A stretch of 64,000 nt of DNA, from positions 218,715 through 282,714 of the forward strand of contig JAGNKY010000001.1 of assembly GCA_017999895.1 (NCBI GenBank), read 5' to 3'. Each line of letters opens with the position of its first letter. The stretch's first letter is position 1. Origin of the DNA: Bacteroidales bacterium. Its GTDB lineage: Bacteria > Bacteroidota > Bacteroidia > Bacteroidales > VadinHA17. This document shows positions 44,342 through 61,706 of this stretch, piece after piece. The notes beneath the pieces were generated by a model. It ran no database searches. It saw only the letters and a list, made by a program, of their open reading frames with translations, and was not told where the DNA came from. A program made the position numbers and the translations under genes.

Positions 44342-45514
44342 ATGTATCAAAAATACCTTTTTTTTCTAGTTTTGTTTACATTCTCATGTAATTCCGGGAA
44401 TAATGTTCTTTACGAATTTAATCCCGAAGTCATTAATAAAAATGAAATCAAGCTTTCCGATATAGCTGATGAGATCACTTACATCCCGCTGAATTATCAA
44501 TACCCTTTAGGACTTTGCCATAAGATTGAAATTACAGACAATTCAATTTATGTATCAGTAAGTGATATTGGTATAATAGCTTTTAGCAGGAATGGGCAAT
44601 TATACAGAAAAATTGGGAATATAGGAAGAGGGCCGGGAGAATACCGTAACGGCTTGAAATTCGCTGTCGATGATAAAAATGAAAGAATATATGTTTTAGA
44701 CCAGGGTATAAAAATTAAAGTCTATTCAAAGTCCGGCAATTTTATAAGAGATATTCCCCTGCAGGATTATGAAGTTTATTTTGATGATATTGACTTTTAT
44801 AATTCCAGTTTATTTTTATCTGAATATATTGGTATTGGTAAGGCAGTATATAACTGGATAATTATAGACACACTTGGCAATTTAATCAGCCACAAAAAAA
44901 ATTCTGTTCCTTCATTTAAAAGTATCTTGATCCCTGGGGGAGGGACCTATAAATTTGAAAACAGAATATTTTACTGGAATTGTTATAACGATACTATATT
45001 TTCAATTTCTCCAGATTTAACATGTAAACCATCATTTTTATTTAGCCCAGGAGAACATAGATTACCAAGATCACAGTATTATTCAGAAGGAAAGAAGTTA
45101 TCTGATTATATGTTACTTAATAACATATTTGAAACAAGACGCTTCTGGGTGATTGTATATTACTTAAAAGCGAAAGGGGCAATCGTCCTTATTGAAAAAA
45201 TAAGTAATAAATCATTTTATGTAGATCTTGAAACTGAATCAATACCTTGGATTAGTTTTACTAATCATGGTGGTATTTTGGATGATCTTGACGGTGGGCC
45301 CAAGTTTCAGCCGTTTGGCTATTTCGAGGAAAATGGTCAGGAATATATTATGGGATTACTGGAACCTTATATACTCAAAACTCACGTTGCCGGCATCGAA
45401 TTTAAAAATTCTAGTACCAAATACCCAAGGGGAAAAGAAGAGTTAAAAAAACTTGCTGACCGACTTAATGAAACTGACAACAAGATACTTGTAATAGTGA
45501 AACTTAAAAAATAA
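44342..45514 (+). CDS. exported six-bladed (NHL-like) beta-propeller lipoprotein, paralogue 1 (no adjacent peptide gene)
   Basis: 390 aa. Lipobox-like FTFSC, GRGPGEY motif, DDLDGGPKFQP motif, and a conserved C-terminal tail KELKKLADRLNETDNKILVIVKLKK. Confidence 0.8.
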   Translation: MYQKYLFFLVLFTFSCNSGNNVLYEFNPEVINKNEIKLSDIADEITYIPLNYQYPLGLCHKIEITDNSIYVSVSDIGIIAFSRNGQLYRKIGNIGRGPGEYRNGLKFAVDDKNERIYVLDQGIKIKVYSKSGNFIRDIPLQDYEVYFDDIDFYNSSLFLSEYIGIGKAVYNWIIIDTLGNLISHKKNSVPSFKSILIPGGGTYKFENRIFYWNCYNDTIFSISPDLTCKPSFLFSPGEHRLPRSQYYSEGKKLSDYMLLNNIFETRRFWVIVYYLKAKGAIVLIEKISNKSFYVDLETESIPWISFTNHGGILDDLDGGPKFQPFGYFEENGQEYIMGLLEPYILKTHVAGIEFKNSSTKYPRGKEELKKLADRLNETDNKILVIVKLKK

Positions 45515-45586
45515 ATTATGCTTAGCTGAAGAAATGAATAAGTTGTATATGAACACAATAAAAAGCCATAATATAGTTTCGAAAGA

Positions 45587-47224
45587 ATGAGAAGAATAAA
45601 AGAGGATAATACTGTTTCAGTAGTACAAAGAGCGATTAAGTATTTTCGGATTCCAGTCACAAAAAGTTCGGTGAAAGAAGCTCTCAAATCAAATTCTTAT
45701 TATCCTACTTTAAGAAGTATTTGCGATGTACTTAATGAATGGAAAATAGAACACTACCCTTTAAAATACGAACAGGAAGAAATAAGAGAATTACCTGCTC
45801 CATATATAGTCCATTTTAATGTTGGCGGCGGTAAACTGGCATTTGTTTCAAAAACCGGGGATGATATAGTAACATATTATGAGTCGTATTACTCTAAAAG
45901 AGTGACTGGTTATGAGGAATTTTTAAAGAAGTGTTCAGGTGCGGTAATTTTATTAAATCCTGATGAAAAGTCGGGCGAGAAAGATTACCGTGTAAAATTC
46001 CAGAGTGAAATAATAGATAATGTTATTTTACCGGTTTCAATACTAACATTCCTGCTTTTCATAATTCTGACTATAATAAACAAATTGATTGCAGGCGGTT
46101 TAATGTATGATAAGGCAGCATATTTTTTATTATTAACAAAAGCTTCAGGGATTGCGCTTTCCACTTTATTGATTTTTCATGAATTCGAGATACAATCGGC
46201 ATTAACTAATAAGTTATGTCATCTTAATAAAGCAACGAATTGTAATACTGTTTTGAATGATAAAGCCTCGAAAATATTCGGATGGTTTGGGTGGGCTGAT
46301 GCCGGGTTTATATATTTTACCGGCGGTTTACTGTTTTTATTGCAAGGTTCCGGTTCAGGTTATTTTTCATTACTTGCATTATTATCAGCTCTTTCATTAC
46401 CCTATCCGGTGTTTTCCATATATTATCATGGCGTTGTACTTAAAAAATGGTGTCCGATGTGCCTGGGTGTCCAGCTTATATTGATTCTTGAGTTTATTTT
46501 ACTTTTCCGGCAATTTTCAGATTTAAATATTTCTTTAAAAAGTATATCAGATTTTATTATAACCTTTTTATTAACAGGATTAATTTATATTCTATTTATC
46601 ACATACATAAAGGAAAAACAGTCAAATGAAATTAATCGTTATCAATACCTTTCTTTTAAGAGAAATCCTGCAGTTCTCAATGCTTTATTGGCGGAGCAGA
46701 CATTTTATGATATACCTGCTACAGAAACCAGTTTAATATTTGGCAGGAAGGAAGCTACTTTACATGTAACGGCCTTTTTAAGCCTTCATTGTTCACATTG
46801 TGCAAGGGCTTTCAATAAAATAAAAGACTTAATTAAATCTGGAGTTGACACAAATTTTAATATCATATTGATTGCTGCGGAAATTGATATAATGAATGCT
46901 TTATATTATTTAAAACGTAATAATAAAGATGATGAAGCGCTGGATTTGCTTTATGAATGGTATAACAGAGATCCCTATTCGAAATATAAAATTTCAGATA
47001 AATATTGCATTCCGGAACTGGAAAATATACCTGAAACGTTAAAAGAAGAGAATGTCAGAATTTTCAAAGAATGTAAAGTAAGCGGTACTCCGACGTTTTT
47101 TATAAATGGATATAAACTTCCGGCACAATATGATATTACAGATATTAAATATTTTATAGAGTTTTTTGTAAATAATGAAAGTACGAATATTAAAAGAGAA
47201 GAAATTCAAAAAGGCATAAAATAA
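45587..47224 (+). CDS. C39-like (non-catalytic) domain / VKOR / thioredoxin fusion protein
   Basis: 545 aa. The N-terminal ~130 aa have a peptidase-C39 fold pattern but no Cys at the catalytic position. Next come 4-5 TM helices with loop Cys pair C-x8-C (LCHLNKATNC) and KWCPMC (46451-46462), then a C-terminal DsbA/Trx domain with CSHC (46790-46801) and cis-Pro GTPT. Confidence 0.85.
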   Translation: MRRIKEDNTVSVVQRAIKYFRIPVTKSSVKEALKSNSYYPTLRSICDVLNEWKIEHYPLKYEQEEIRELPAPYIVHFNVGGGKLAFVSKTGDDIVTYYESYYSKRVTGYEEFLKKCSGAVILLNPDEKSGEKDYRVKFQSEIIDNVILPVSILTFLLFIILTIINKLIAGGLMYDKAAYFLLLTKASGIALSTLLIFHEFEIQSALTNKLCHLNKATNCNTVLNDKASKIFGWFGWADAGFIYFTGGLLFLLQGSGSGYFSLLALLSALSLPYPVFSIYYHGVVLKKWCPMCLGVQLILILEFILLFRQFSDLNISLKSISDFIITFLLTGLIYILFITYIKEKQSNEINRYQYLSFKRNPAVLNALLAEQTFYDIPATETSLIFGRKEATLHVTAFLSLHCSHCARAFNKIKDLIKSGVDTNFNIILIAAEIDIMNALYYLKRNNKDDEALDLLYEWYNRDPYSKYKISDKYCIPELENIPETLKEENVRIFKECKVSGTPTFFINGYKLPAQYDITDIKYFIEFFVNNESTNIKREEIQKGIK

Positions 47225-47292: not shown

Positions 47293-47383
47293 GGCAGAGG
47301 GCATAGGGCTGAGAGCAAAGGGTAAAATTATACTGCAATCCACGCTATTCTCCTCGTTCTTAGCTCTTTGCTCTCAGCCCTTT
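47293..47383. repeat. heptanucleotide-array hairpin element, copy A
   Basis: GGCAGAG GGCATAG GGCTGAG AGCAAAG, a 28-nt spacer, then TCTCCTC GTTCTTA GCTCTTT GCTCTCA GCCCTTT. It contains a perfect 15-bp inverted repeat (47306-47320 / 47366-47380). Confidence 0.8.
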
Positions 47384-47435
47384 ATAAAGAGAGGAGGTAA
47401 GCCTATGTGCAGATAATACTATTCCGTGACTTCGG

Positions 47436-47455
47436 TTGCGGCCTGTGAAAGGATA
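47436..47455 (+). promoter_or_regulatory. conserved cassette box 1 (TTGCGGCCTGTGAAAGGATA)
   Basis: The 20-mer occurs 4 times in the window, always 47-48 nt upstream of a precursor-peptide ATG. Confidence 0.6.
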
Positions 47456-47503
47456 CAGCAGGAAAAAGTAAAAAATAAATTGTTTAACTAAAAACATAAA
47501 ATT

Positions 47504-47761
47504 ATGAAAAAATTAAGTAAATTGCAGATTAATCCGGAAAGAATTATGAAGAATGAAGAACTGAAAATTCTGAGAGGTGGAGATTATGACTCTGGTTGTG
47601 GGAATTATACAGAGTGGTTTTGTGATGTGCATTACGATGGAGTTTATGCTTTTTCAGGCATAGCCTGTGGCACACAAGAATATATTTCTGGTGTCTGTCA
47701 ACAACTAAATTATGAATGTTCTTGTACACAAACATGGACTCCCATGCCTATCATTAATTAG
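47504..47761 (+). CDS. double-glycine-leader Cys-rich peptide precursor P1 (26-aa leader + 59-aa core, 6 Cys)
   Basis: The leader MKKLSKLQINPERIMKNEELKILRGG is conserved with three paralogues. The core has 6 Cys and ends in an NYECSC motif. The gene sits immediately upstream of the propeller/C39-ABC/HlyD genes. Confidence 0.85.
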   Translation: MKKLSKLQINPERIMKNEELKILRGGDYDSGCGNYTEWFCDVHYDGVYAFSGIACGTQEYISGVCQQLNYECSCTQTWTPMPIIN

Positions 47762-47874
47762 TATTAAAATTATAAATTGGAGAGTCAGAGGATAGTATTA
47801 ATTAAATTGAGTAAACAACCTCTGGTTCCTTTTCTTCATAATTTCATTTTGAAATTTATATTTTTTGTTCTGCT

Positions 47875-49179
47875 ATGATAAAAAAAATATACATGTTTTT
47901 TCTTCCAGTTGTATTAATGATTTTTCTTGCCCTAAAATGCACTGAATTTTGTATAGACAAAAATATAATAGACAAAAATATAATTGAAGAAATTGACATT
48001 CAGAGTAAAATTGGAAAATATGAAATCGTTAAATTGAGTCAATTTAGTTCTTCAATAAAATATTTACCTCTGATATTAGATGGTGAACATAAAATTAACA
48101 GGATTGTACAAGTAGATTTTACTCCAGACAAGATTCTAATTAGCGATGGGAAAGAATGCCTGTTACTTACTGCAGATGGATCATTTATTAGAAAAATAGG
48201 AGATACAGGCAGGGGACCCGGTGAATATAATATTATTTCAAATATAAGCTTTGGATCAAATAGTACTATTTTTATTCAATCGGCTAATGGTATTTTTCTA
48301 GAGTTTTCTGATGAAGGAACTTTGATTAATATTTCCAAAGTTCCTTCAAATTATTCACATGACTACTATATAGGATCGTGGATACAAGTAAATGACTCAT
48401 TGTTTTTCGGGCAAACTCCAATAACAACAGGGAAGGAATCAACAAAAGCTATATTATTCAATAAAAATGGTAAGATTATTAAGGAATATAAAAACTATAT
48501 TCTGCTTGACAGGCAAATAAGAATGTTTACCACAGATGACAGCGAAGCATCTTATTACTCATATAATGGCAGGATATATTATAAAGAAAAACTGAGCGAT
48601 ACATTATTTTACCTCGACGACAATTTCGATTTATTGCCCAGAATGACTTTTAGGCTGGGTAAATATTTAATGCCTAAAAAATACCGCGAAAACATAAGCT
48701 TTGGTCAATCCTTAAGCCCAAAGTTTAACTACATTTTCATAGAAAATGTTTATGAAACTCAACACTATTTATTGCTGGATTGTGAGTTTAACAGATACTT
48801 TCCGGCAAAACGAATTACACCTAAAATAATACATGGAGTGGAAATCTGGCAAAATACTTTGAATGTTCTGGGATTTTATAATAAACAAAATAGGACTCTT
48901 GTTTTTATTGAGCCAACATCGACAGATAATCCTTTGTACACCTCAGGGCTTTATAATGACATTGATGCCGGTCCAAGATTTTTTCCTATGAAGCAGGTCG
49001 ATGACTCAACTATGGTAATGTGGGTTGATTCTAAACAGCTTAAGGATCATATTGCAAGTGAGGAATTTAAAAATGCCAAGCCTCTATATCCTGAAAAGAA
49101 GGAAGAGTTGAAACATCTGGCCAACAGTCTTAAAGAAACCGATAATCCGGTTTTGATGATTGTACGTTTGAAAGAATAA
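47875..49179 (+). CDS. exported six-bladed beta-propeller protein, paralogue 2
   Basis: 434 aa. Signal/anchor N-terminus, GRGPGEY, NDIDAGPRFFP, tail LKHLANSLKETDNPVLMIVRLKE. A 15-bp in-frame tandem duplication lies at 47956-47985 (DKNIIDKNII). Confidence 0.85.
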   Translation: MIKKIYMFFLPVVLMIFLALKCTEFCIDKNIIDKNIIEEIDIQSKIGKYEIVKLSQFSSSIKYLPLILDGEHKINRIVQVDFTPDKILISDGKECLLLTADGSFIRKIGDTGRGPGEYNIISNISFGSNSTIFIQSANGIFLEFSDEGTLINISKVPSNYSHDYYIGSWIQVNDSLFFGQTPITTGKESTKAILFNKNGKIIKEYKNYILLDRQIRMFTTDDSEASYYSYNGRIYYKEKLSDTLFYLDDNFDLLPRMTFRLGKYLMPKKYRENISFGQSLSPKFNYIFIENVYETQHYLLLDCEFNRYFPAKRITPKIIHGVEIWQNTLNVLGFYNKQNRTLVFIEPTSTDNPLYTSGLYNDIDAGPRFFPMKQVDDSTMVMWVDSKQLKDHIASEEFKNAKPLYPEKKEELKHLANSLKETDNPVLMIVRLKE

Positions 49180-49181
49180 AT

Positions 49182-51479
49182 ATGTCCGAATTTCCTTTCT
49201 TCAAGCAGCTCGATTCCATGGATTGCGGTCCGACGTGTCTGCGCATGATAGCCAGGTTTTACGGGAAATCATATTCATTACAATATCTGCGTTCAAGGTC
49301 ATTTCTTACAAAAGCGGGTGTTTCGATGCTTGGCATCAGTGAGGCAGCCGAGAGCATCGGTTTCCGCACCCGCGGCTACCGCCTCACCTGGGAACAACTA
49401 CGTGACGAGGTACCACTCCCATGTATTGTTCACTGGAGTCAAAGGCATTTTGTCGTAGTGTACAATATCGAGAAGAAGAAGAAAGCTTGGGGCTTGGGGC
49501 GGAGGGCGGAGGGCAGAGTGCGGAGAGCAAAGGATATGGAGCAGGGAGCAAGAGGCGAAGAGCGCAGAGCATACAATTCAGAAACCATAGTTTATGTTGC
49601 CGATCCTGCCTCCGGTCTTCTTAAATACACCAGAGATGAGTTCCTTAAATGCTGGTATAGTACGAAAACCGATGGTGTTCAGGAAGGCGCCGCACTGTTG
49701 CTGGAGCCGTCACCTGATTTCTACCGCCAGGAAGACGAAGAAAAGGGTAAACTTAAATTCACATATCTGCTTGGTTATATAAAGCCTTACAAAAAGTTCA
49801 TCCTGCAGCTTATGCTTGGAATGCTCACCGCAAGCATAATCAGCCTTATATTTCCTTTTCTTACACAATCTCTTGTTGATACCGGTATCGGAAACAGCAA
49901 CATTGCATTTGTCATTCTGGTTCTTGTCGCCCAGTTGATACTTAGTCTCAGCCAGACAGCCAACGGACTGCTGCGTAACTGGATAAGCCTACACGTCACA
50001 AGCAGGATAAGCATCTCCCTTATATCTGATTTTCTAATTAAACTGATGAGACTTCCTATTTCGTTCTTCGATACAAAAATGATCGGAGATATAATGCAAA
50101 GAATAGGCGACCATAACCGCATAAAAACATTCCTTACCGATTCTCTTATCAGTATAATATTTGCCGTTATTACTCTAGTTATGTACACCATTATTATGGC
50201 TACATATAACCTTGCGATACTCGGAGTCTTTCTTGTCGGCAGTGCCTTATACATAGGCTGGGTCGTTCTTTTTCTCAAACGCCGCCGCGAACTCGATTAC
50301 AAGCGTTTTCAGCAAAGCGCGGCTAACCAGAGCAACATAGTACAGCTTATTACAGGGATGCAGGAGATAAAGCTTAACAACTGTGAGAAACAAAAACGGT
50401 GGGAATGGGAAAGGATACAGATAAAGCTCTTTAAGGTAAGCTTAAAGAGTATGATGCTTAACCAGAATCAGCAGCTCGGAGCAGTTTTGATAAACCAGAC
50501 GAAAGATATCTTTATTTCCTTCCTCTCGGCTATGGCTGTCATTCGCGGCGAGATGACCCTTGGTATGATGATGGCCGTTCAGTATATAATAGGTCAGCTC
50601 AATGCACCGATACAACAATTCATCGGTTTTACTCAGGCGGCTCAGGATGCAAGGATAAGCCTCGAGCGGCTTGGCGAGATACACAACCGTGAGGATGAGG
50701 AGAAGCCGGAAGACTATAAGATAAGAGACATTCCTGTAGATAAAGATATAGAGATAAAAAACCTTGTTTTTCAGTACGAAGGTCCTCATTCTGAAAAAGT
50801 ACTGGATGACATTTCGTTGGTTATTCCGGCAAAAGGTGTAACAGCTATTGTTGGAACAAGTGGAAGCGGTAAAACAACACTTATAAAGTTGCTGCTTGGG
50901 TTTTATGCTCCCGTGAAAGGGGGAATCTATCTGAACGGGACTCCTCTCAACCGGTTCAGCCAGAGTGAGTGGCGCAAAAGGTGCGGTGTTGTAATGCAGG
51001 AAGGATTCATCTTTTCCGATACTATTGCCGGAAACATAGGACTGATAGATGAAATTCCCGACAGGGAAAAGATAGACAAGGCATCCGATACGGCTAACAT
51101 CAAAGATTTTATCGAGGGCCTGCCGCTTGGGTATAATACCAGAATCGGCAATGACGGACATGGTCTGAGTACAGGTCAGAAACAAAGGATACTGATTGCC
51201 CGGGCAGTTTATAAAGAGCCTGATTTTATCTTTTTTGATGAGGCAACCAACGCTCTTGATGCAAAAAACGAAAAGACAATTATGGACAATCTGGGCAGCT
51301 TTTTTGAGGGTAAAACGGTTGTGATTGTTGCACACCGTTTGAGCACTGTAAAGAATGCCGATCAGATAGTGGTTCTCGAAAAAGGCAAGATAGTGGAGAA
51401 AGGAACGCATAATGAACTTGTTAAGATGAAAGGGGCGTATTATAACCTTGTGAAAGATCAGCTGGAACTGGGGAATTGA
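49182..51479 (+). CDS. peptidase-C39 domain ABC transporter (bacteriocin-type exporter) carrying an in-frame repeat insertion
   Basis: 765 aa. C39 triad context (QLDSMDCGPTC, HWSQRHFVVV, VADPASG), 6 TM helices, Walker A GTSGSGKTT, signature LSTGQKQR, Walker B IFFDEAT. Confidence 0.92.
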   Translation: MSEFPFFKQLDSMDCGPTCLRMIARFYGKSYSLQYLRSRSFLTKAGVSMLGISEAAESIGFRTRGYRLTWEQLRDEVPLPCIVHWSQRHFVVVYNIEKKKKAWGLGRRAEGRVRRAKDMEQGARGEERRAYNSETIVYVADPASGLLKYTRDEFLKCWYSTKTDGVQEGAALLLEPSPDFYRQEDEEKGKLKFTYLLGYIKPYKKFILQLMLGMLTASIISLIFPFLTQSLVDTGIGNSNIAFVILVLVAQLILSLSQTANGLLRNWISLHVTSRISISLISDFLIKLMRLPISFFDTKMIGDIMQRIGDHNRIKTFLTDSLISIIFAVITLVMYTIIMATYNLAILGVFLVGSALYIGWVVLFLKRRRELDYKRFQQSAANQSNIVQLITGMQEIKLNNCEKQKRWEWERIQIKLFKVSLKSMMLNQNQQLGAVLINQTKDIFISFLSAMAVIRGEMTLGMMMAVQYIIGQLNAPIQQFIGFTQAAQDARISLERLGEIHNREDEEKPEDYKIRDIPVDKDIEIKNLVFQYEGPHSEKVLDDISLVIPAKGVTAIVGTSGSGKTTLIKLLLGFYAPVKGGIYLNGTPLNRFSQSEWRKRCGVVMQEGFIFSDTIAGNIGLIDEIPDREKIDKASDTANIKDFIEGLPLGYNTRIGNDGHGLSTGQKQRILIARAVYKEPDFIFFDEATNALDAKNEKTIMDNLGSFFEGKTVVIVAHRLSTVKNADQIVVLEKGKIVEKGTHNELVKMKGAYYNLVKDQLELGN
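49485..49575 (+). repeat. 13-unit heptanucleotide array embedded in frame in the C39 domain
   Basis: GCTTGGG GCTTGGG GCGGAGG GCGGAGG GCAGAGT GCGGAGA GCAAAGG ATATGGA GCAGGGA GCAAGAG GCGAAGA GCGCAGA GCATACA. It encodes AWGLGRRAEGRVRRAKDMEQGARGEERRAY between the catalytic His and Asp. Confidence 0.85.
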
Positions 51480-51573
51480 TGCTTTTGCCTCTCCCGGCAC
51501 TCCCAAAATGGGGAGGTGTAGCGTGGTATAAGAGAAATAAGCCCCCCATTTTTGGGGGTTGGGGGGCAAAATA

Positions 51574-53386: not shown

Positions 53387-53421
53387 GCCTATGTGCAGAT
53401 AATACTATCCCGTGCCTTCTG

Positions 53422-53441
53422 TTGCGGCCTGTGAAAAGATA
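53422..53441 (+). promoter_or_regulatory. conserved cassette box 2 (TTGCGGCCTGTGAAAAGATA)
   Basis: 19/20 match to box 1, 47 nt upstream of the P2 ATG. Confidence 0.6.
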
Positions 53442-53488
53442 AAACAGGGAAGAATAAAAATAAATTATTTAACTAAAAATATAAAACT

Positions 53489-53716
53489 ATGAAAAAAATT
53501 GGTAAATTGCACATAAATCAGGATAAGATTATGAAGAATGAAGAACTTTTAGTACTTCAGGGAGGTTATGGAAGTGAGTGTGGTTTCTTGTGTTGTGTTT
53601 ATCTTGGTTCATCATTACTTTACTGCGGTGTCGGTTGTGGTGATAGTGCATTCGGAGCAGAAGCTAATTGTAATATGGAGTTCGGCCAATATGGATATAA
53701 CTGTAAATGCTGGTGA
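53489..53716 (+). CDS. double-glycine-leader Cys-rich peptide precursor P2 (26-aa leader + 49-aa core, 8 Cys)
   Basis: Leader MKKIGKLHINQDKIMKNEELLVLQGG. The core has 8 Cys and ends YNCKCW. Confidence 0.85.
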   Translation: MKKIGKLHINQDKIMKNEELLVLQGGYGSECGFLCCVYLGSSLLYCGVGCGDSAFGAEANCNMEFGQYGYNCKCW

Positions 53717-53802: not shown

Positions 53803-55071
53803 ATGAAGGAAGCTATTCTTTTTATTGGCTTGTTAATATCAATTATTCGTTGTTCATGCTCTTTTCATGAAAAAACGGATAATAATTTATATCATATTGA
53901 CATAGAAGCTAATATGCATAAAATGCAGCAGATCAATCTTAGTAAGTTTACAAAAAGTATTGAATACCTTCCTATGGAGATAAAGGATAATTTGGCATTT
54001 ACCGGAATTTGGGAGTGTGTGTTTTCTGATAAATACTTTTTAGCTAAAGATATTTCTAAATGTCTGCTTTATGATTATAATGGTAAATTAATTTCTATAA
54101 TCGGGAATCGTGGGCGAGGGCCTGGAGAGTATCAATATGTCAATAATGTGGCATTTGGTTTGAATAAGATTTATTTGCAAAGTTTAAGGGATTTAATGGA
54201 ATACGGTTTTGATGGTTCTTTTCATGATATACACAGGAATTTATTTTTTTTCAAAAGCTATTATGTGGGAAAATGGTTACCTCTGAACGATTCATTGTTT
54301 TTTGGAAAAATAGAGACTATAGTTGGGAATGAACCGTGCAAGGCATTAATATTTGATTTAAACGGGAACACTGTAAAGGAGTTTAAAAACTATATCATTT
54401 TTCAACGGGAGAAACCTTTATCCAGTGAAACGGAACGTCATGCAAATATCTATCGTTTTCAGAATGAGATCTTTTTTAAAGAATTACATAATGATACATT
54501 ATTCTATTTATCAGAACAGTTGGAACTTATACCAAAATATGTAATCGATCTGGGACAATACACTGTTCCAGTTTCGATAAGAAAACTTTTGATTATTCCG
54601 GAGAATAATTATATGACTGTAAATAATGTCTTTCAAACTTCAGATTATTTGTTCCTTGATACAAACTTCGGTTCACATTTTCCTGCTAGAAGATTGACAC
54701 CTATAAAATTACCAATATTTAATATTGAATCATATTATAACACTCAAGATGTATTGGGCATATTCGATAGAAGGAATAAAGAATTAATTTTTTGCAGTCC
54801 AACCAGCACAGATAATCCGTTATTTACTACAGGTTTTTATAATGATGTTGATGCCGGCCCGAGGTTCTTTCCAAAGGTGCAGGTCGATGACTCAACTATG
54901 GTAATGTGGGTTGATTCTAAACAGCTTAAGGATCATATTGCAAGTGAGGAATTTAAAAATGCTAAGCCTCTATATCCTGAAAAGAAGGAAGCGTTGAAAC
55001 ATCTGGCCGACAGTCTGAGTGAGTACGATAATCCTGTACTGATGTTTGTAACTTTCAAGAGTGAAAAATGA
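53803..55071 (+). CDS. exported six-bladed beta-propeller protein, paralogue 3
   Basis: 422 aa. Signal peptide with Cys (IIRCSC), GRGPGEY, NDVDAGPRFFP. The 3' 137 nt are near-identical to paralogue 2. Confidence 0.85.
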   Translation: MKEAILFIGLLISIIRCSCSFHEKTDNNLYHIDIEANMHKMQQINLSKFTKSIEYLPMEIKDNLAFTGIWECVFSDKYFLAKDISKCLLYDYNGKLISIIGNRGRGPGEYQYVNNVAFGLNKIYLQSLRDLMEYGFDGSFHDIHRNLFFFKSYYVGKWLPLNDSLFFGKIETIVGNEPCKALIFDLNGNTVKEFKNYIIFQREKPLSSETERHANIYRFQNEIFFKELHNDTLFYLSEQLELIPKYVIDLGQYTVPVSIRKLLIIPENNYMTVNNVFQTSDYLFLDTNFGSHFPARRLTPIKLPIFNIESYYNTQDVLGIFDRRNKELIFCSPTSTDNPLFTTGFYNDVDAGPRFFPKVQVDDSTMVMWVDSKQLKDHIASEEFKNAKPLYPEKKEALKHLADSLSEYDNPVLMFVTFKSEK

Positions 55072-55208: not shown

Positions 55209-56560
55209 GAGGGTGTTCAAAAAAGTGTGTCAAAGAGTAAGTAATAAAAAATAGATTTGACACATGGAAAATAAGGAACGAAAACGGACGCCTCGAATAG
55301 AGGAACTGATTCCTGACTCTGAGAGGCGGGAGCAGGTATTAAACAGGTTATACAAAGGGGAACCCATACTTGGGGATGGAGGCATATTTACAGAAATGCT
55401 TCAAGCCTTTGTCAATGCAGCCCTTGAAGGGGAGATGGATCATCATCTGAAAGGGGGAAAAGGTGGATGCCAGGGCAACAGGCGCAACGGTCATACGCAC
55501 AAGGTAGTAAGAAGCACAGCAGGTCCATTTGAAGTTCATACTCCCCGGGACCGGGATGGGGAACACGAACCCATTCTGATTAAGAAATGGGAAAGGGAAC
55601 TTGGGACCGGTCTGGATGATATCATACTGAGTTTATATGCACGAGGACAATCGGTTGAAGATGTTCGGTATCAGTTGCGCAGGTTGTATGGATTAGAAGT
55701 GAGCGCAGGAGCGATAAGTGCGGTTACCGACCGTGTCTGGAGCGAGATTACCCAATGGCAGGAAAGGCCTCTGTCACCATTACAGGTAATAGTTTACCTG
55801 GATGCAATTCATTACAAGGTAAGGGAATCAGGTCAGATTATCTCCAAGGCGATATATACGGTTTATGGGGTAGATGTAAATGGAGAGCGAGATGTACTTG
55901 GGCTTTATCTGAGCGACAATGAAGGCTCGCGACAATGGGGTCTCATCCTTGAAGATATCAAGCGCAGAGGAGTGGATGATGTCTTATTCTTTTGTGTAGA
56001 TGGGCTTAAGGGGTTCAAAGAGGTGATTGAACAGGTATATCCTGAATCGATCCTGCAGCGCTGTATTGTTCATATGGTGCGAACATCGACACGGTTTGTA
56101 AGTGACAAAGATATTAAGGCAGTGTGTTCAGATCTGCGCAAAATTTACTCTTCAGCAGACAGGCAGCATGCGGAAATTGCCATGGAAGCCTTTGGTGAAA
56201 AATGGGGCAAATACCCTGAGATAAAGCCAAAATGGGAAGAGAACTGGGAAGAGTTGATGGCATTTATGGATTATAGCTCCAATATCCGCAGGATGATTTA
56301 TACGACCAATCCAGTAGAAGCTCTTCACCGAATTATGCGCAAGGTCACAAAAACAAAAGGAGCATGGATCAATGACAAGGGATTATTAAAACAGCTATAT
56401 TTAGCACTTAAGTACAACGAAAAAAGCTGGAAACGTAAAGCCTTCAACTGGCTTCCGATCCATAGAGAGCTCATTGAAAAGTTTGGAGACAGGTATGCAA
56501 AATTTGTTGTCCAATAAGTTTACCCGAAAAAGAAAATGACACACTTTTTTGAACATACCC
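55209..56560 (+). mobile_element. intact IS256-family insertion sequence (1352 bp)
   Basis: Terminal inverted repeats GAGGGTGTTCAAAAAAGTGTGTCA (left) and TGACACACTTTTTTGAACATACCC (right), with 19 bp perfect. Flanked by the 8-bp direct repeat TTGCCCGC (55201-55208 and 56561-56568). Confidence 0.9.
55264..56517 (+). CDS. IS256-family (mutator-type) transposase
   Basis: 417 aa and full length. DAIHYKV...CVDGLKGF...IVHMVR...IYTTNPVEALH are typical of Transposase_mut. Confidence 0.93.
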   Translation: MENKERKRTPRIEELIPDSERREQVLNRLYKGEPILGDGGIFTEMLQAFVNAALEGEMDHHLKGGKGGCQGNRRNGHTHKVVRSTAGPFEVHTPRDRDGEHEPILIKKWERELGTGLDDIILSLYARGQSVEDVRYQLRRLYGLEVSAGAISAVTDRVWSEITQWQERPLSPLQVIVYLDAIHYKVRESGQIISKAIYTVYGVDVNGERDVLGLYLSDNEGSRQWGLILEDIKRRGVDDVLFFCVDGLKGFKEVIEQVYPESILQRCIVHMVRTSTRFVSDKDIKAVCSDLRKIYSSADRQHAEIAMEAFGEKWGKYPEIKPKWEENWEELMAFMDYSSNIRRMIYTTNPVEALHRIMRKVTKTKGAWINDKGLLKQLYLALKYNEKSWKRKAFNWLPIHRELIEKFGDRYAKFVVQ

Positions 56561-56763
56561 TTGCCCGCCGTATCCGCCGGCTGGCAGAGAAGGCGGGTGC
56601 CCTCTGCCCTGCGCTCCTTGCTCTCCCGAATCTCGGGACTGCGTCGCTTCGCTCCTTGTGTGCTCTGTGCCAATCTTTCGCAGTCTTTCAATCAGCTACA
56701 GCTTGCAAAGCTTCCGCCTCTTTCCTTCTGCCTATCGCCTTTCGCCTTCTTCCCTGACTTCGG
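56561..56763. repeat. heptad element copy C, right part
   Basis: C/T-rich heptads (TCTGCCC TGCGCTC CTTGCTC ... TGCCTAT CGCCTTT CGCCTTC TTCCCTG). A ~48-nt core (56663-56710) is shared with copy D. Confidence 0.75.
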
Positions 56764-56783
56764 TTGCGGCCTGTGAAAGGATA
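56764..56783 (+). promoter_or_regulatory. conserved cassette box 3 (TTGCGGCCTGTGAAAGGATA)
   Basis: Identical to box 1, 47 nt upstream of the ATG at 56831. Confidence 0.6.
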
Positions 56784-56830
56784 AATCAGGAAAACTGAAT
56801 AAAATTTATTAATTTTAAAAAATAATGGTT

Positions 56831-57073
56831 ATGAAAACACTTGGAAAATTAAAAATCAATCAGGGGAAAATTATTAAAAATGAGGAGCTGGTACAGATAA
56901 GAGGAGGTTATTCTTACTTTATCTGTCATGCTATATGTAGTGGTGGTTTGGATGACTATATCGGTTTCTCATCTACTTGTGATGAAATGGATTGGCAATG
57001 CGCAAGGGGACAATGTATTGAATTTTACAATCAGGTTTTTTATAATTGTGAGTGCGCTTGCGTCAATGGTTAA
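56831..57073 (+). CDS. double-glycine-leader Cys-rich peptide precursor P3 (26-aa leader + 54-aa core, 8 Cys)
   Basis: Leader MKTLGKLKINQGKIIKNEELVQIRGG. The second ATG is preferred over the ORF-track 56825 because it gives the same 26-aa leader and the same 47-nt box spacing as P1 and P2. The core ends YNCECACVNG. Confidence 0.85.
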   Translation: MKTLGKLKINQGKIIKNEELVQIRGGYSYFICHAICSGGLDDYIGFSSTCDEMDWQCARGQCIEFYNQVFYNCECACVNG

Positions 57074-57279: not shown

Positions 57280-58617
57280 ATGTTAAATTTATTTACTAAT
57301 CAATTAAATATAATTAATAAATTAATTTTCCCAATCTGTCTGATTGTCTTATTAATAGCGTCACGCTGCTTATCAAAAAGGCCGATAAATATATTACCGC
57401 TTATTGATATAGAAGCAAATATAAATAATATGCAGAAAGTTTATCTCAGTGAATTTACCGATAATATATGGTATGTTCCTCTTGAAAGTAATCCAGACTT
57501 TTTATTATACTGGACTTATAATAACTTATCGGATTTCTCCGAAAACTATATTTTGTATTCTGATGGAAAGATGTGCCTTCTATATGATAATGAGGGACGA
57601 TTTATCCGACCAATTGGCAAACAGGGCAGAGGTCCGGGAGAATATATAGGAATAGATTATATAGCATTGATAAATGAAAAAATATTTATACATGACTATT
57701 TTACCGATGATCTATTAGAATATAATATTGATGGAACTTTTATAAACCGTAACAAGAGTGGTTTTACTGGACATGACAAATACCGTCTGAGAGATGCAAT
57801 TATGATAAATGATTCAATGATTTTCGGAAATATTCAAAACTATACAGGTCATGAAGAATATAAGGCTTTGATTGTTGATAAAAAGGGGAACATTAAATAT
57901 CCTTATAAAAACTATATTTTCTTTGACTTAAAACCTGGTGTGCCACATGCTCAGGAAATGGGGGAGGGTGCAATATTCTCCAGATTTGGAGAAATAATTT
58001 ACTTTAAAGAACCATTTAATGATACCTTATTCCAGATTGATAATCAATTTCGACTTATACCTTTTTATATTTTTAACTTTGGTAAATACAAGTTTCCACT
58101 ATCAGAAAGGGGTAAAGCCTGGGCCGATATAGATCTTTCTTCATATATTTTTTTGAATGAAATTTTTCAGACAAAAAACTATTTATTTGTTTCATGTAGA
58201 TTAGGTAAGTATTTTCCAGCAAAAAGAATAACGCCTGAAATAATACGTACACCGAGTAATAAAGATTATATCCAATGGTATAACACACAATCGGTATTAG
58301 GTATTTTTGATGAGAGAAAAGGAGATATTGTTTTCTCTGAGCCTACCAGTACAAACAATCACTTATTTACATCAGGGATTTACAATGATATTGATGCAGG
58401 ACCAAGATTTTTCCCCGATAAGATGGTAAATGATTCAACTATGATGATGAAAATCAAATTTGACTATCTTGTAGAACATATTGAAAGCAATGATTTTAAA
58501 TATAATATTCCGAAATATCCTGAAAGAAAGAAAAAACTTGAAATGCTTGTAGATAGTCTGAAAAAGGTTGAATTTGATAATCCTGTATATATGTTTGTAA
58601 CCTTTAAGTCTAAATGA
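57280..58617 (+). CDS. exported six-bladed beta-propeller protein, paralogue 4
   Basis: 445 aa. TM/signal with Cys (IASRC), GRGPGEY, NDIDAGPRFFP, tail DNPVYMFVTFKSK. Confidence 0.85.
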   Translation: MLNLFTNQLNIINKLIFPICLIVLLIASRCLSKRPINILPLIDIEANINNMQKVYLSEFTDNIWYVPLESNPDFLLYWTYNNLSDFSENYILYSDGKMCLLYDNEGRFIRPIGKQGRGPGEYIGIDYIALINEKIFIHDYFTDDLLEYNIDGTFINRNKSGFTGHDKYRLRDAIMINDSMIFGNIQNYTGHEEYKALIVDKKGNIKYPYKNYIFFDLKPGVPHAQEMGEGAIFSRFGEIIYFKEPFNDTLFQIDNQFRLIPFYIFNFGKYKFPLSERGKAWADIDLSSYIFLNEIFQTKNYLFVSCRLGKYFPAKRITPEIIRTPSNKDYIQWYNTQSVLGIFDERKGDIVFSEPTSTNNHLFTSGIYNDIDAGPRFFPDKMVNDSTMMMKIKFDYLVEHIESNDFKYNIPKYPERKKKLEMLVDSLKKVEFDNPVYMFVTFKSK

Positions 58618-58660: not shown

Positions 58661-58828
58661 GACCTTTCTCTGCCAATCCTTCGCTGTCTTTCAGCCAGCT
58701 AAGGCTTACAAAGTCTGAGCTCTGTGCTCCTTGCCCTCAGCCCTTCGCCCTGTGCCCTGCGCTCTGTGCTTCGTGCCTCACGCCTCTCGCGTCACGCCTC
58801 ATGCCTCACACCTTTTCCGTGCCTCCGA
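58661..58828. repeat. heptad element copy D (13 consecutive NNGCYCT units at 58717-58807)
   Basis: GAGCTCT GTGCTCC TTGCCCT CAGCCCT TCGCCCT GTGCCCT GCGCTCT GTGCTTC GTGCCTC ACGCCTC TCGCGTC ACGCCTC ATGCCTC, preceded by the core shared with copy C (58668-58713). Confidence 0.85.
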
Positions 58829-58848
58829 TTGCGGCCTGTGAAAGGATA
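58829..58848 (+). promoter_or_regulatory. conserved cassette box 4 (TTGCGGCCTGTGAAAGGATA)
   Basis: Identical to boxes 1 and 3, 47 nt upstream of the ATG at 58896. Positions 58829-58926 match 56764-56861 at 97 of 98 nt. Confidence 0.6.
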
Positions 58849-58895
58849 AATCTGGAAAACTGAATAAAATTTATTAATTTTAAAAAATAATGGTT

Positions 58896-59126
58896 ATGAA
58901 AACACTTGGAAAATTAAAAATCAATCCTGAAAAGTTGATGAAAAATGAGGAATTAATGACATTGAGAGGGGGATATAGCGGTGGTATAGTATTATGGTGT
59001 TTAGCTGTTGGGCCTACTTGTGTTCTACATAATATGCCCGGAAATTGTGATTGGGTATATAATGACACCATTTGTAGAATTGAATGTCCTAATTATATAG
59101 GAGTTTATTACTGTTTTTCAGAATAG
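58896..59126 (+). CDS. double-glycine-leader Cys-rich peptide precursor P4 (26-aa leader + 50-aa core, 6 Cys)
   Basis: Leader MKTLGKLKINPEKLMKNEELMTLRGG (second ATG preferred). The core has 6 Cys. Confidence 0.85.
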   Translation: MKTLGKLKINPEKLMKNEELMTLRGGYSGGIVLWCLAVGPTCVLHNMPGNCDWVYNDTICRIECPNYIGVYYCFSE

Positions 59127-59147
59127 GAGTTGATTTAAGATTAATTT

Positions 59148-59176
59148 AAAGAAGGGGGACTTCAACTCCCTTCTTT
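59148..59176 (+). terminator. hairpin between P4 and propeller 5 (possible partial terminator/attenuator)
   Basis: AAAGAAGGG-N11-CCCTTCTTT followed by AATTTT, 22 nt after the P4 stop. Confidence 0.45.
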
Positions 59177-59188
59177 AATTTTGATAAG

Positions 59189-60424
59189 ATGATAATAAAA
59201 ATAAACATGAAGATAAATATGAAGATAAATATGGGGACATTTGATAAGTTATTATCAAATGTTTTAATTCTTTCATTATTGGCAATTAGCTGTAGAACCT
59301 CAAGTACTAAGGCCGACAGTCATATAATCACTTTTAACTTAAATAAGCTTCCCAAAATTTCAGAAGTAAAATTATCAGATCTTGGATTTACTGACATTGA
59401 ATATATCCTACTGGAAACAAATGATCAAAGCATGGTCCCAATGATTAACAATGTATTATTTGGGGATAACTACTTTTTAACACTTTTTTTTACGAATATA
59501 CTTATGTATAGATATGATGGAAAGTTTGTTACAAAAATAGGAACAGAAGGAAGAGGCCCGGAAGAGTTTACTGTTGTTCATGATGTAGATATCAATAGAA
59601 ATAATCAAAAAATTTATTTGGCTGATGGGTGGCAAAAGAAATTTTATGTTTATTCAGAAAGCGGGGGATTTGTTAATACATTTCGGACTTATATTCAAGG
59701 CAATATTTCCTTTAGATTCACTGAAGATGGAATTTTATGCTACAATAAGAATTCACTTGGGAATGTTGAAAACAGTTATACTTTGATTGATACTTCAGGT
59801 AAAATCATAAAAAATTTCCCTAATAAGTATCTTTGGAATTTAAGACAAAAAAATACAGTCATTTTTAATGAGAACCTTTTTTATCGTTTTAATAACAAGC
59901 TTTATAAGAAAGAGATTTATTCTGACACTATATTTATTTTCGAACATTCTTATTTTAAACCTCACTTAATTATTAAGCATGGGGATAAATTATTAACCAC
60001 GAAAGCACGCTCAGAATATGACCCAAGAATACTTTCAGAAAAGTTTATATCACAAAAGAATCTTTTTGAATTTGGTGATTATATTTATTATGAGTTTACT
60101 TATGATTCTAAAAGAAATGAGGGTATTACTTTTAAAGGTTTTATTGGTTCAAAAAAAGATAACACTCAGTTCTTAATTAATTCTGAAAATGGTATAGTTA
60201 ATGATCTGGACGGTGGGCCTGGTTTTTGGCCTAAAACTATAAAAGATGACCGCACGGTTGTTTCATGGGTTGAGGCTTTGAAATTAAAGAAATATATTGA
60301 TTCAGATTTGTTTAAAAATTCAACTCCCAAATACCCTGAAAAGAAGAAAGAGCTTGAAAAACTTGCAAACAGTCTTAAAGAGACCGATAATCCGGTTTTG
60401 ATGATTGTACGATTGAAAGAATAA
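59189..60424 (+). CDS. exported six-bladed beta-propeller lipoprotein, paralogue 5
   Basis: 411-aa ORF. The likely true start is ATG 59231 (MGTFDKLL...LLAISC lipobox). GRGPEEF, NDLDGGPGFWP, and a tail near-identical to paralogue 2. Confidence 0.85.
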   Translation: MIIKINMKINMKINMGTFDKLLSNVLILSLLAISCRTSSTKADSHIITFNLNKLPKISEVKLSDLGFTDIEYILLETNDQSMVPMINNVLFGDNYFLTLFFTNILMYRYDGKFVTKIGTEGRGPEEFTVVHDVDINRNNQKIYLADGWQKKFYVYSESGGFVNTFRTYIQGNISFRFTEDGILCYNKNSLGNVENSYTLIDTSGKIIKNFPNKYLWNLRQKNTVIFNENLFYRFNNKLYKKEIYSDTIFIFEHSYFKPHLIIKHGDKLLTTKARSEYDPRILSEKFISQKNLFEFGDYIYYEFTYDSKRNEGITFKGFIGSKKDNTQFLINSENGIVNDLDGGPGFWPKTIKDDRTVVSWVEALKLKKYIDSDLFKNSTPKYPEKKKELEKLANSLKETDNPVLMIVRLKE

Positions 60425-60554
60425 ATAAAACTGTAGTCCGGCCACTGACGGGCGATAGAAATGGATTTAAAGTTTATATAAAGTATAACCGATTGATCAA
60501 TAAACTGCTTTTATAATTTGTTGATATTTAATGTATAACTAAAACTATATTTCT

Positions 60555-61706
60555 ATGAAAAGGTTTTTAATCCAGCTTCTGTTTTTTGGCCTGTATAATA
60601 GTATTTTTTGCCAGCAGTTGCCTGTTTTAAATCTTTCTTCAGCAATTGGAAACCTTGAAAATATTACTTTAAGCGACTTTGTCGAATCCGTTACATATAT
60701 TCCTCTTGCCACCACTTATGACTGTCTCGTAGATAAGAATCCGAAAGTTTATGTTACCAAAGATTACATAGTAACAGTAACGTTTTTAAGGTGTCTTGTT
60801 TTCAACCGAAAGAATGGGGAATTTATACGTGAGATTGGGAGTTATGGCCGCGGACCCGGGGAATTTCAGAACGCCAGAGGGTTCTTAAACGAACATATTC
60901 CTGCATGTTACTTTAATGGATGGAATGGAAATCTGGTCAAGTATTCGATTGACGGCGCTTTCAGGGGAAATGTAAGGATACCTGGTTTTAAAGATAACTT
61001 CGATTCTCTTTCTCTCCCAATGAATTATTCTTATCTGAACGATTCAATTATAGTATGTGATCTTTTGATTGCTTCCGGAATCGAACCCAATTCACTAATG
61101 ATATTTAATGAGAAGGGCGAAGCCTTAAAGATTTTTCCTAACAGAAATATTTTAGAAACTAAACGAAATTTTGTGCTTCGAACCGGCGAAACGAGTTTTT
61201 ACCATTTTAACAACAATTTATTCTTTCAAAGTATGTACAATGATACTGTATTCCGGATATCCATCGACAAAATAACTCCATATTTTATTCTCAACCGTGG
61301 TAAACATAGTCCTCCGTTTGAATCAAAATGGTGGTCATTCGACAAGCAACTGCAATCAAATTTTATTTCTCAACCGGTATATCTTGAAAATGAGCGATAC
61401 ATCTCATTCAATTTCTATCTGAGCAAGAATAAATATTTTGCACTGTATGATAAATCATTGAAATTACTTAAAGTCACCGACAATAACTCCGGAATTAAGA
61501 ATGATATTGATGGATTCATGAATATAACATTCGATTCTATGAATTGGGAAGGAGAGTTGATTGGCATTCTTCAGGCAAATGAACTGGTAAGCTGGATAGA
61601 AAAGAATCCTGAAAAATTCAAAAAACTGAATCCTGCATTACAGAAATTAGGGAATATCGGGATGTGGGATAATCCGGTAGTTATTATCGGAAAATATAAG
61701 AGATAG
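60555..61706 (+). CDS. exported six-bladed beta-propeller protein, paralogue 6 (most divergent, no adjacent peptide gene)
   Basis: 383 aa. Signal peptide, GRGPGEF, a degenerate C-terminal motif (NDIDGFMNITF), tail DNPVVIIGKYKR. Confidence 0.8.
   Translation: MKRFLIQLLFFGLYNSIFCQQLPVLNLSSAIGNLENITLSDFVESVTYIPLATTYDCLVDKNPKVYVTKDYIVTVTFLRCLVFNRKNGEFIREIGSYGRGPGEFQNARGFLNEHIPACYFNGWNGNLVKYSIDGAFRGNVRIPGFKDNFDSLSLPMNYSYLNDSIIVCDLLIASGIEPNSLMIFNEKGEALKIFPNRNILETKRNFVLRTGETSFYHFNNNLFFQSMYNDTVFRISIDKITPYFILNRGKHSPPFESKWWSFDKQLQSNFISQPVYLENERYISFNFYLSKNKYFALYDKSLKLLKVTDNNSGIKNDIDGFMNITFDSMNWEGELIGILQANELVSWIEKNPEKFKKLNPALQKLGNIGMWDNPVVIIGKYKR

Follow-up and report, generated by a model that had tools for sequence, protein, structure and literature searches.

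Divergent DUF5128 beta-propellers paired with cysteine-rich leader peptides in a Bacteroidales island: candidate cognate immunity proteins

Why should a single bacterial locus maintain six divergent copies of one propeller protein, four of them placed directly behind a gene for a small cysteine-rich peptide? We addressed this question in a 64,000-nucleotide stretch of a Bacteroidales genome (GenBank assembly GCA_017999895.1, contig JAGNKY010000001.1, positions 218,715 to 282,714), hereafter the window, in which an island at 43.9-62.0 kb carries six propeller genes (p1 to p6) and four peptide genes (peptides 1 to 4). An initial annotation, made from the letters of the sequence, had described the propellers as an exported NHL-like family, each the variable partner of a peptide, and had offered sequestering immunity, extracytoplasmic maturation or reception as possible roles. 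We find that the linkage between peptide and propeller is general, one-to-one and co-varying. We tentatively propose, as a reading that may well prove wrong, that each DUF5128 propeller is a periplasmic lipoprotein conferring immunity against the peptide encoded just upstream.

The pairing of each peptide with its own divergent propeller holds in all four window cassettes (cassette 2, comprising peptide 1 and p2, to cassette 5, comprising peptide 4 and p5), where the peptide genes sit 63-207 nt 5' of p2-p5, and it recurs in other genomes and in metagenomes. A genome scan yielded 28 loci, nearly all from Bacteroidales, Rikenellaceae or Bacteroidetes metagenome-assembled genomes (MAGs), in a sample drawn with p2-like patterns. 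Within these loci a gene for a Cys-rich peptide with a double-glycine (GG) leader lies 30-380 nt upstream, on the same strand, of at least 22 of the 64 full-length propellers, as detected by a leader model built from four sequences that missed at least one real peptide (locus L026). A peptide-anchored scan of metagenome contigs, using an 18-nt piece of a conserved element found upstream of the peptide genes, returned at least 129 matches. Among the matches listed, 71 have a peptide gene within 200 nt downstream, the next gene is a propeller for 59 of the 59 peptide genes followed by at least 900 nt of sequence, and 55 of the 58 matches that have no peptide also have no flanking homology and are chance matches.

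Furthermore, the two partners change together. Across 54 non-redundant pairs, peptide type and propeller type are correlated (Mantel r = 0.50, p <= 5e-4), and for 19 of the 29 peptides with a recognisable relative the best propeller match is the propeller of that relative. Relatives of p4 (54-64% identity; L020, L025, L010, L035) carry related peptides, and the orthologue of peptide 2 in L002/L116 is paired with the propeller that is closest to p3 among peptide-paired propellers. A homologue search with peptide 2 itself recovered three proteins only, because small peptide genes are rarely called.

All six propellers are confirmed as plus-strand open reading frames (ORFs), of 383-445 aa, at the positions first assigned to them. 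Each exceeds the gathering score of Pfam family PF17170 (DUF5128, '6-bladed beta-propeller'; 47.7-91 bits against 22.9, E 1.6e-12 to 1.1e-25), and each matches DUF4934, five above the gathering score and p3 at 19.1 bits, short of the cut-off of 27. Combined into one profile, the six match the NHL domains of TRIM2/3/71 (E 1.5e-19) and 4raa, the structure of an uncharacterised exported Bacteroides fragilis protein. NHL propellers have six tandem repeats with the motif Gx(2)GxGxGxF; here one canonical repeat (about profile residues 75-147) aligns to each blade of the TRIM2 NHL domain, the other blades being too divergent to score. Structure prediction, a check put forward in the initial annotation, was carried out for p2 alone of the six paralogues: the AlphaFold2 (AF2) model (111 homologues, pLDDT 92.3) is a six-bladed propeller with three C-terminal helices and a closing strand after the last blade, and a Foldseek search with it returned 4raa as the best PDB match (E 3.4e-18, TM 0.64/0.76), followed by NHL domains. 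The NHL-like fold is borne out by these profile matches and this model, with the qualification that a single blade bears the canonical motif. The early account of fold, predicted export and pairing is supported; what it did not recognise is that the family is a known one in Pfam, DUF5128, with a solved structure.

Pairwise identity among the six is 25-46%, in keeping with the by-eye estimate of less than 50%, and similarity is much higher over the final ~90 columns of the alignment than over the rest (up to 82% between p2 and p3). In an alignment of 111 relatives from many genomes, mean column entropy is 1.0 bit over residues 346-434 against 2.0 bits over residues 36-345. Because this C-terminal conservation is seen across 111 relatives from many sources, it is not only the product of gene conversion within one genome. 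No Pfam model matched the C-terminal module that marks this branch (three helices and closing strand; PTSTDNP...NDIDAGPRFFP), the DUF5128 model spanning only about residues 30-310. In a profile search at E <= 1e-30, counting matches of full-length strength, the branch comprises 1,660 clusters at 50% identity.

The motifs first described as common to all six copies fared unevenly. A hydrophobic N-terminus followed by Cys is present in every paralogue. GRGPGE(Y/F) occurs once each in p1-p4 and p6 and is altered in p5 (GRGPEEF); D-x-D-(A/G)-G-P-x-F-x-P is found in p1-p5 (p3 has DVD) and not in p6, which reads DIDGFMNITF; and of the KYPEKK...NPVL tail p2-p5 have a clear version, p1 a partial one and p6 no more than DNPVV. 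Family-invariant polar residues are D242, D362 and D364 (in N-D-x-D-(A/G)-G-P), N207 and N424; no conserved His and no recognisable catalytic constellation was found across the six paralogues. In NCBIfam the propellers gave sub-threshold matches to ScyF only (E 4e-5, far below cut-off).

The N-termini support the prediction that the propellers are exported lipoproteins. By sequence rule, 93 of 111 family members have a lipobox Cys, with Ser predominant at -1, and the five positions after the Cys are poor in acidic residues. In lipoprotein sorting of Bacteroidetes, acidic residues after the Cys bear on surface export, so their scarcity here argues that the lipoprotein is not flipped to the cell surface; we infer that the propellers are kept off the surface, in which case they would be in the same compartment, the periplasm, as the thioredoxin domain of the island's VKOR-thioredoxin protein. 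Two of the genes have repeats near these signals. In p2, an in-frame tandem repeat (47953-47984, 15-nt unit, 2.1 copies) encodes DKNIIDKNII right after the lipobox Cys. In p5, an in-frame tandem repeat at the 5' end (59201-59233, 12-nt unit, 2.8 copies) encodes MKINMKINMKIN ahead of the signal peptide; because of this position of MKINMKINMKIN, the true start of p5 is probably downstream of the annotated one.

The four precursor peptides share near-identical leaders of ~26-28 residues (M(V)MK.LGKL.IN..K.MKNEEL..LRGG), followed by cores of 49-59 aa with 6 or 8 Cys that are mutually unrelated in sequence. The best leader scores 24.9 bits against the cut-off of 25 for TIGR04149 (precursors of ribosomally synthesised and post-translationally modified peptides modified by radical SAM enzymes), and the remaining leaders score lower or have no match. 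No radical SAM gene lies among the island ORFs, so that both marks of that class, a leader above the cut-off and a neighbouring radical SAM maturase, are lacking in the island. Among 63 distinct cores from related loci, 62 (98%) are net negative and none is positive, the median charge being -4; their composition includes 14% Cys, 13% Gly and 16% aromatic residues, and the Cys count is even in 87%. The residue right after the leader is mostly Tyr and the C-termini are diverse, with a terminal Gly in 6/63. One peptide has a weak match to ComC (E 0.008). Because the cores are Cys-rich and the island contains a VKOR-thioredoxin gene, the peptides would appear to be disulfide-rich mini-proteins oxidised in the periplasm; oxidation by a dedicated thiol oxidoreductase follows the same logic as that proposed for bacteroidetocins (PMC6671954). 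Every spacer between peptide and propeller holds a stable hairpin with a U-rich tail (~47781-47825, 53736-53787, 57146-57248, 59146-59178), the strongest having a 13-bp stem (59146-59178). These hairpins may be partial terminators giving a high ratio of peptide to propeller expression.

The cassettes are mosaics. Compared in 60-nt windows, cassettes 2 and 3 are 60-93% identical from the 5' element through the leader, ~35-60% identical in the core and most of the propeller, and 80-100% identical in the last ~200 nt of the propeller, a pattern repeated between cassettes 4 and 5. Put summarily, DNA identity is 82-100% for the flanks, against ~40-55% for the core peptide and propeller body. The last ~260 nt of p3 have 85% DNA identity to p2, against ~45% protein identity at full length. 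Among the matches listed, 18 of 44 evaluable metagenome cassettes have an exporter start within 400 nt of the propeller stop, at least nine of these being stubs of 20-118 codons, and exporter stubs also follow propellers in several MAG loci. The metagenome contig Ga0116184_10010827 (L075) is 99.9% identical to window positions 56668-60427 and diverges exactly at the p5 stop codon; past it, a stub of the exporter gene is followed by another cassette in which the peptide has become degenerate (37 aa, with GV in place of GG), next by a propeller of 398 aa, and last by the leader of peptide 1. This is a strain-level rearrangement at cassette boundaries. Because the flanks are alike, the core and propeller body are divergent, exporter stubs recur and the L075 breakpoint falls where it does, the unit of exchange can be read from sequence as 5' element-leader / core-propeller body / propeller 3' end-exporter 5' end. 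The exporter-gene stubs mark displaced cassettes.

Propellers are also found on their own. Neither p1 nor p6 has a peptide gene upstream, as first reported, and neither is preceded by the conserved 5' element. Elsewhere, close relatives of both follow type-specific peptide genes. Relatives of p6, 74% (L017) and 68% (L035) identical, each follow a gene for a 'YCLCxC..IPLAWW.CYSSV' peptide, and the closest relatives of p1 (43-50% identity) each stand after a Cys-rich peptide gene, most of these peptides having a CCxC motif near the core start. By homology, p1 and p6 are true orphans of paired types. Decayed leader remnants lie 5' of intact propellers in L024 and L006, and long propeller arrays occur without peptides in L003, L007 and L012. 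The proposed likeness to the orphan immunity copies of polymorphic toxin loci fits the peptide-bearing relatives of p1 and p6, the decayed peptide remnants and the exporter stubs. Intact propellers without a peptide favour immunity, because a protein serving only its own peptide should decay along with that peptide.

How might such a system work? The island would combine several cassettes encoding exported peptides rich in disulfides, much like a locus for a class II bacteriocin or a bacteroidetocin. Judging by domain content, its C39-ABC exporter with the HlyD protein would cut off the double-glycine leader and export each peptide, and the VKOR-thioredoxin protein would oxidise the peptide in the periplasm. 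The propeller lipoprotein, on the periplasmic side, would bind its own folded peptide through the variable body, and the bound peptide would be kept from its envelope target in the producer. Peptide-less propellers (p1, p6 and the tandem arrays elsewhere) would be orphan immunity genes, kept as protection against the peptides of neighbours, and new units would be exchanged by recombination, with the 5' element and leader DNA as left flank and the propeller 3' end and exporter start as right flank. Localisation, peptide toxicity, peptide binding and protection are all predictions of this scheme.

We rank cognate immunity first because there is one divergent partner for each peptide alongside shared export and oxidation genes, as in bacteriocin-immunity cassettes; because linkage is strict, the partners co-vary and are retained after peptide loss, and cassette turnover is of the conflict type; and because the fold is a binding scaffold with no recognisable catalytic constellation, and its predicted location puts propeller and oxidised peptide on one side of the membrane. 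As is characteristic of immunity proteins, the propellers are encoded beside and co-inherited with a peptide, and orphan copies exist. Precedents for such immunity include LanI lipoproteins and the periplasmic immunity proteins of envelope-acting type VI secretion effectors. Among immunity proteins, Tsi1 is a partial propeller (PMC3391265). Several points weigh against immunity. The uniformly anionic cores are unlike typical membrane-active bacteriocins and perhaps not toxic; immunity genes are altogether absent from known bacteroidetocin producers (PMC6671954). The C-terminal ~90 residues of the propellers are about twice as conserved as the body, which suggests docking to a conserved partner, a property that a purely sequestering protein would not need. 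Physical linkage alone could yield the co-variation of peptide and propeller, no charge complementarity was seen between propellers and peptides, and distant peptide-less DUF5128 copies may have unrelated roles.

The conserved C-terminus is the starting point for the main rival, which we consider doubtful: the propeller may be a cargo-specific periplasmic escort or folding adaptor whose variable body holds the cognate peptide after export, serving production and release and not protection. Its conserved C-terminal module would then dock onto a shared machine, be it the VKOR fusion (at its thioredoxin domain, for oxidative folding), the complex of exporter and HlyD, or a route out through the outer membrane. 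The two-module build, with a variable body and ~90 C-terminal residues strongly conserved in 111 members, suits this role, as does the conserved order peptide-propeller-exporter, in which the propeller follows the peptide in 59 of 59 metagenome cases among the matches listed and the p2 stop lies 3 nt before the exporter start. Moreover, peptides with 6-8 Cys need folding help in a phylum that has no general disulfide machinery (PMC6671954). However, intact propellers commonly occur with no peptide, some of them closely related to paired ones, and a cargo-less escort is not expected to persist; the C-terminal conservation may also be structural, reflecting the closing strand and covering helices and reinforced by gene conversion within the window. 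Of the readings, escort accounts best for the conservation of the C-terminal module and for the propeller gene's fixed place before the exporter, and leaves the many orphans unexplained. A propeller escort has, to our knowledge, no precedent in the export of class II peptides, which counts against it. It is tempting to speculate further that the propellers are the missing part of a two-step secretion route for disulfide-rich peptides of Bacteroidetes, the C-terminal module handing the peptide to the shared oxidase and an outer-membrane exit and the large DUF5128 expansions of Bacteroidales forming a repertoire of peptide-handling adaptors and not of generic lipoproteins; we regard this wider proposal as unlikely, more so than the escort role itself.

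An extracytoplasmic enzyme, either modifying the peptide in the manner of peptidyl-alpha-hydroxyglycine lyase or inactivating it in that of virginiamycin B lyase, is improbable. Six-bladed propellers do include such enzymes, Vgb lyase is among the distant Foldseek matches (E ~4e-7, TM 0.36-0.39), the invariant D242, D362, D364, N207 and N424 could form a metal site, and ScyF, to which the propellers are weakly similar, is an NHL protein of a biosynthetic cluster. Yet the closest structural matches are NHL binding scaffolds and an uncharacterised protein, and an enzyme would normally be common to all peptides, like the exporter and oxidase, where here there is one divergent copy for each. The few Gly-ending cores and the mostly Tyr first core residue speak against amidation or glutaminyl cyclisation; peptide-amidating lyases have a conserved His-based Zn site and Gly-ending substrates, against no invariant His among the six paralogues and a terminal Gly in 6 of 63 cores here. 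The evidence favours immunity or escort over an enzyme of the peptidyl-alpha-hydroxyglycine lyase kind because no His is conserved across the paralogues, the core C-termini are diverse and each peptide has its own copy. Least probable is a receptor or sensor role, in which the peptides would act as signals instead of toxins, perception or uptake starting with the capture of each peptide by its own propeller. The anionic peptides are unlike classical antimicrobial peptides, pheromones also use double-glycine leaders (one peptide here has the weak ComC match), and a regulatory-looking conserved 5' element precedes every peptide gene. Nevertheless, no kinase, regulator, TonB-dependent transporter or other transducer adjoins the cassettes in the island or the related loci examined, the propellers have no extra domain, and extreme core diversification with cassette swapping typifies conflict systems, not signalling.

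Comparison with known systems places cognate immunity in context. Gram-positive class II bacteriocin-immunity cassettes and the LanI proteins NisI and SpaI are well established. They share with the island an immunity-like gene directly 3' of each peptide gene, a common exporter, orphan immunity genes, a hairpin between the peptide gene and the next gene, and a lipid-anchored partner on the trans side of the membrane, predicted here from the lipoprotein signal peptide with lipobox Cys that all six ORFs have by sequence rule. They differ in fold, a six-bladed propeller being neither a four-helix bundle nor a SpaI/NisI-like fold, and in that the host here is a diderm, so the protein would act in the periplasm. 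Bacteroidetocin loci of Bacteroidales, a proposed class IIf (Coyne et al. 2019, PMC6671954), likewise combine a double-glycine-leader peptide with an even Cys number, a C39-ABC exporter and a dedicated thiol oxidoreductase. However, a five-transmembrane protein needed for production lies by the peptide gene there and has no counterpart among the island ORFs, and those loci have no immunity gene or propeller, whereas the island has HlyD and one propeller per peptide, with several cassettes sharing one exporter. Bacteroidetocin leaders are 15-16 residues long against ~26-28 here, and the cores are 42 aa with 4 Cys against ~48 aa, 6-8 Cys and an anionic character here.

In its architecture the locus also resembles the orphan toxin-immunity modules of CDI and Rhs systems (PMC3482391). 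Both have a variable toxin-plus-partner unit between conserved recombination arms, displaced cassettes still carrying part of the adjoining conserved gene (in the island, the 5' stub of the exporter), toxin-less partners and strain differences at cassette boundaries; the candidate toxin here, unlike theirs, is a small free-standing leader peptide and not the C-terminal tip of a large protein. A 2012 survey of polymorphic toxins reported no beta-propellers among immunity proteins (Zhang et al. 2012, PMC3482391). Within its own fold class, the family resembles the NHL propellers of TRIM2/3/71 and Brat (profile match E ~1e-19, six blades, GxGxGxF-type motif), but keeps one canonical repeat, and the TRIM/Brat proteins are eukaryotic, cytosolic and bind RNA or protein; a common function cannot be inferred. 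To DUF5128 proper and 4raa (BF0058) it is joined by the above-threshold scores of all six copies, the best structural match of the p2 model and the lipoprotein-like N-termini, while the C-terminal module lies outside the Pfam model and that family is functionally blank. Gut Bacteroides pair NVEALA-type small proteins with such propellers; a link to that pairing was dropped, since no NVEAL-like ORF was found in the window or the 28 loci; we also found no paper mentioning NVEALA.

As a group, the '6-bladed beta-propeller' lipoproteins of DUF5128 and related families are very numerous, highly diversified and functionally blank, and our literature search found nothing linking DUF5128/NHL-type propellers to peptide genes. 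Strict, repeated and co-varying linkage to peptides that appear to be exported and disulfide-rich offers a first testable functional hypothesis for this branch. Should it hold, the propellers would represent a new immunity (or escort) fold in the peptide-mediated competition of diderm bacteria, peptide-less propeller arrays would be explained as stores of orphan immunity, and the anionic Cys/Gly/Tyr-rich peptides would form a class distinct from bacteroidetocins. It would also define a cassette-exchange mechanism whose recombination arms and 5' RNA-like element could be used to mine further loci.

The 5' element itself is a conserved non-coding stretch ~35-50 nt upstream of every peptide gene start, found in the four window cassettes, in L002, L004, L009, L014, L017, L020, L025 and L026, and in about 70 metagenome loci among the matches listed. 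It consists of a 7-bp hairpin (CCGUGAC-N4-GUUGCGG) followed by the invariant CCUGUGAAAGGAUAAAUCAGG, a stretch that contains CCUGUGAAAGGAUAAA. The window holds exactly four copies, against 0.12 expected by chance. Over 32 copies, 89.7% of hairpin cells pair and the covariation score exceeds that of 497 of 500 shuffles; the many one-sided switches between G.U and Watson-Crick pairs point to pairing in the plus-strand RNA. RNAalifold on 11 copies of a longer upstream region gave a weak consensus (-5 kcal/mol), and the pair count on the 32 copies supports the short hairpin only. Rfam has no family for the element; its only match, MIR529, was set aside as a chance match on a GC-rich hairpin repeat. 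At 47393-47416 and 53379-53402, and in most related loci, a GGAGGT box stands 7 nt before a three-codon mini-ORF upstream of the hairpin, after another hairpin (CCTTTC...GAAAGG). The mini-ORF reads ATG TGC AGA TAA in the window and mostly ATG CGA AGA TAA (M-R-R-stop) elsewhere, with a GTG or TTG start in some loci; box and mini-ORF are absent from cassettes 4 and 5. Shine-Dalgarno sequences are rarely used in Bacteroidetes. The mini-ORF may be a translated leader or attenuator, which would be unusual in this phylum.

The coordinates of the island's features, in their gene order, are collected in Table 1.

Table 1. Features of the peptide-propeller island (window coordinates)
Feature	Position	Strand	Evidence or remark
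Mutator/IS256-family transposase fragment	43887..44195	+	left island border; Pfam Transposase_mut E 2.1e-24, profile positions 276-373 only
p1, DUF5128 propeller, predicted lipoprotein, orphan (no peptide gene upstream)	44342..45514	+	PF17170 E 1.3e-24
VKOR + thioredoxin fusion, thiol oxidoreductase, N-terminal domain weakly C39-like	45587..47224	+	Pfam VKOR 2.1e-14, Thioredoxin_4 2.9e-12
5' element, cassette 2	47422..47462	+	hairpin then invariant CCTGTGAAAGGATA... stretch; GGAGGT box and mini-ORF before it, 47393-47416
Peptide 1, 85 aa: GG leader + 59-aa core, 6 Cys, net charge -7	47504..47761	+	TIGR04149 leader match E 1.3e-5; leader alignment; composition
p2, propeller partner of peptide 1	47875..49179	+	PF17170 1.5e-17; AF2 pLDDT 92.3; Foldseek top match 4raa E 3.4e-18
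Peptidase-C39 ABC exporter (PCAT), repeat-encoded low-complexity insert in C39 domain	49182..51479	+	Pfam Peptidase_C39 3.3e-30, ABC_membrane, ABC_tran
HlyD-family membrane fusion protein	51559..52899	+	Pfam HlyD_3 E 4e-9
5' element, cassette 3	53408..53448	+	mini-ORF at 53379-53402
Peptide 2, 75 aa: GG leader + 49-aa core, 8 Cys	53489..53716	+	leader alignment, composition
p3, propeller partner of peptide 2	53803..55071	+	PF17170 1.6e-12
Intact Mutator/IS256-family transposase, between cassettes 3 and 4	55264..56517	+	Pfam Transposase_mut E 4.9e-90
5' element, cassette 4	56750..56790	+	
Peptide 3, 82 aa: GG leader + 54-aa core, 8 Cys	56825..57073	+	leader match/alignment, composition
p4, propeller partner of peptide 3	57280..58617	+	PF17170 1.8e-19
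Exporter-gene 5' stub, 52 nt, abutting p4 stop codon	58618..58669	+	88% DNA identity to 49189-49240; tblastn = exporter residues 3-20
5' element, cassette 5	58815..58855	+	
Peptide 4, 78 aa: GG leader + 50-aa core, 6 Cys	58890..59126	+	leader alignment, composition
p5, propeller partner of peptide 4	59189..60424	+	PF17170 1.1e-25
p6, propeller, orphan (no peptide gene upstream), most divergent copy	60555..61706	+	PF17170 2.3e-22

The island is of low GC content (0.31-0.39 against ~0.42 on both flanks) and carries every gene on the plus strand. Housekeeping genes adjoin it, those for a GntR regulator and an FGGY kinase to the left and that for a 2-oxoacid dehydrogenase E2 subunit to the right. 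All cassettes of the island share a single exporter, HlyD protein and VKOR-thioredoxin oxidase. PADLOC returned no match. The transposase fragment at the left border, a 3' piece with 40% identity (tblastn) to the intact copy, abuts p1, and may be the reason why p1 has lost its peptide gene. At its N-terminus the VKOR-thioredoxin protein has ~135 residues (45587-46010) that weakly resemble a C39 peptidase domain (pairwise E 0.004), with Tyr in place of the catalytic Cys; they may form a leader-binding C39-like domain that recruits precursors. Beyond the exporter, HlyD and VKOR genes, recurrent neighbours in the related loci are inconsistent, an RND pump occurring in 8 and LanC-like and glycosyltransferase genes in 3. 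In L017 (14944-18215) and L024 (15350-18556) a LanC-like fragment and two glycosyltransferases, one of them a match to the 'GT4-conflict' family, immediately precede the VKOR-thioredoxin gene; none of these occurs in the window.

Each 5' element has upstream of it a set of GC-rich repeats whose period is 7 nt (GGCAGAG, TCTGTGC, GCCTCAC; 47293-47322, 53266-53297, 56730-56748, 58714-58813). The same kind of repeat is found within the exporter gene (49485-49533), and its product there is an insert, rich in Arg, Gly and Ala, within a C39-domain loop; at that position the exporter of L010 also has a low-complexity insert, but another one. Comparable GC-rich repeats fill the intergenic regions beside propellers in other MAGs (L011, L012).

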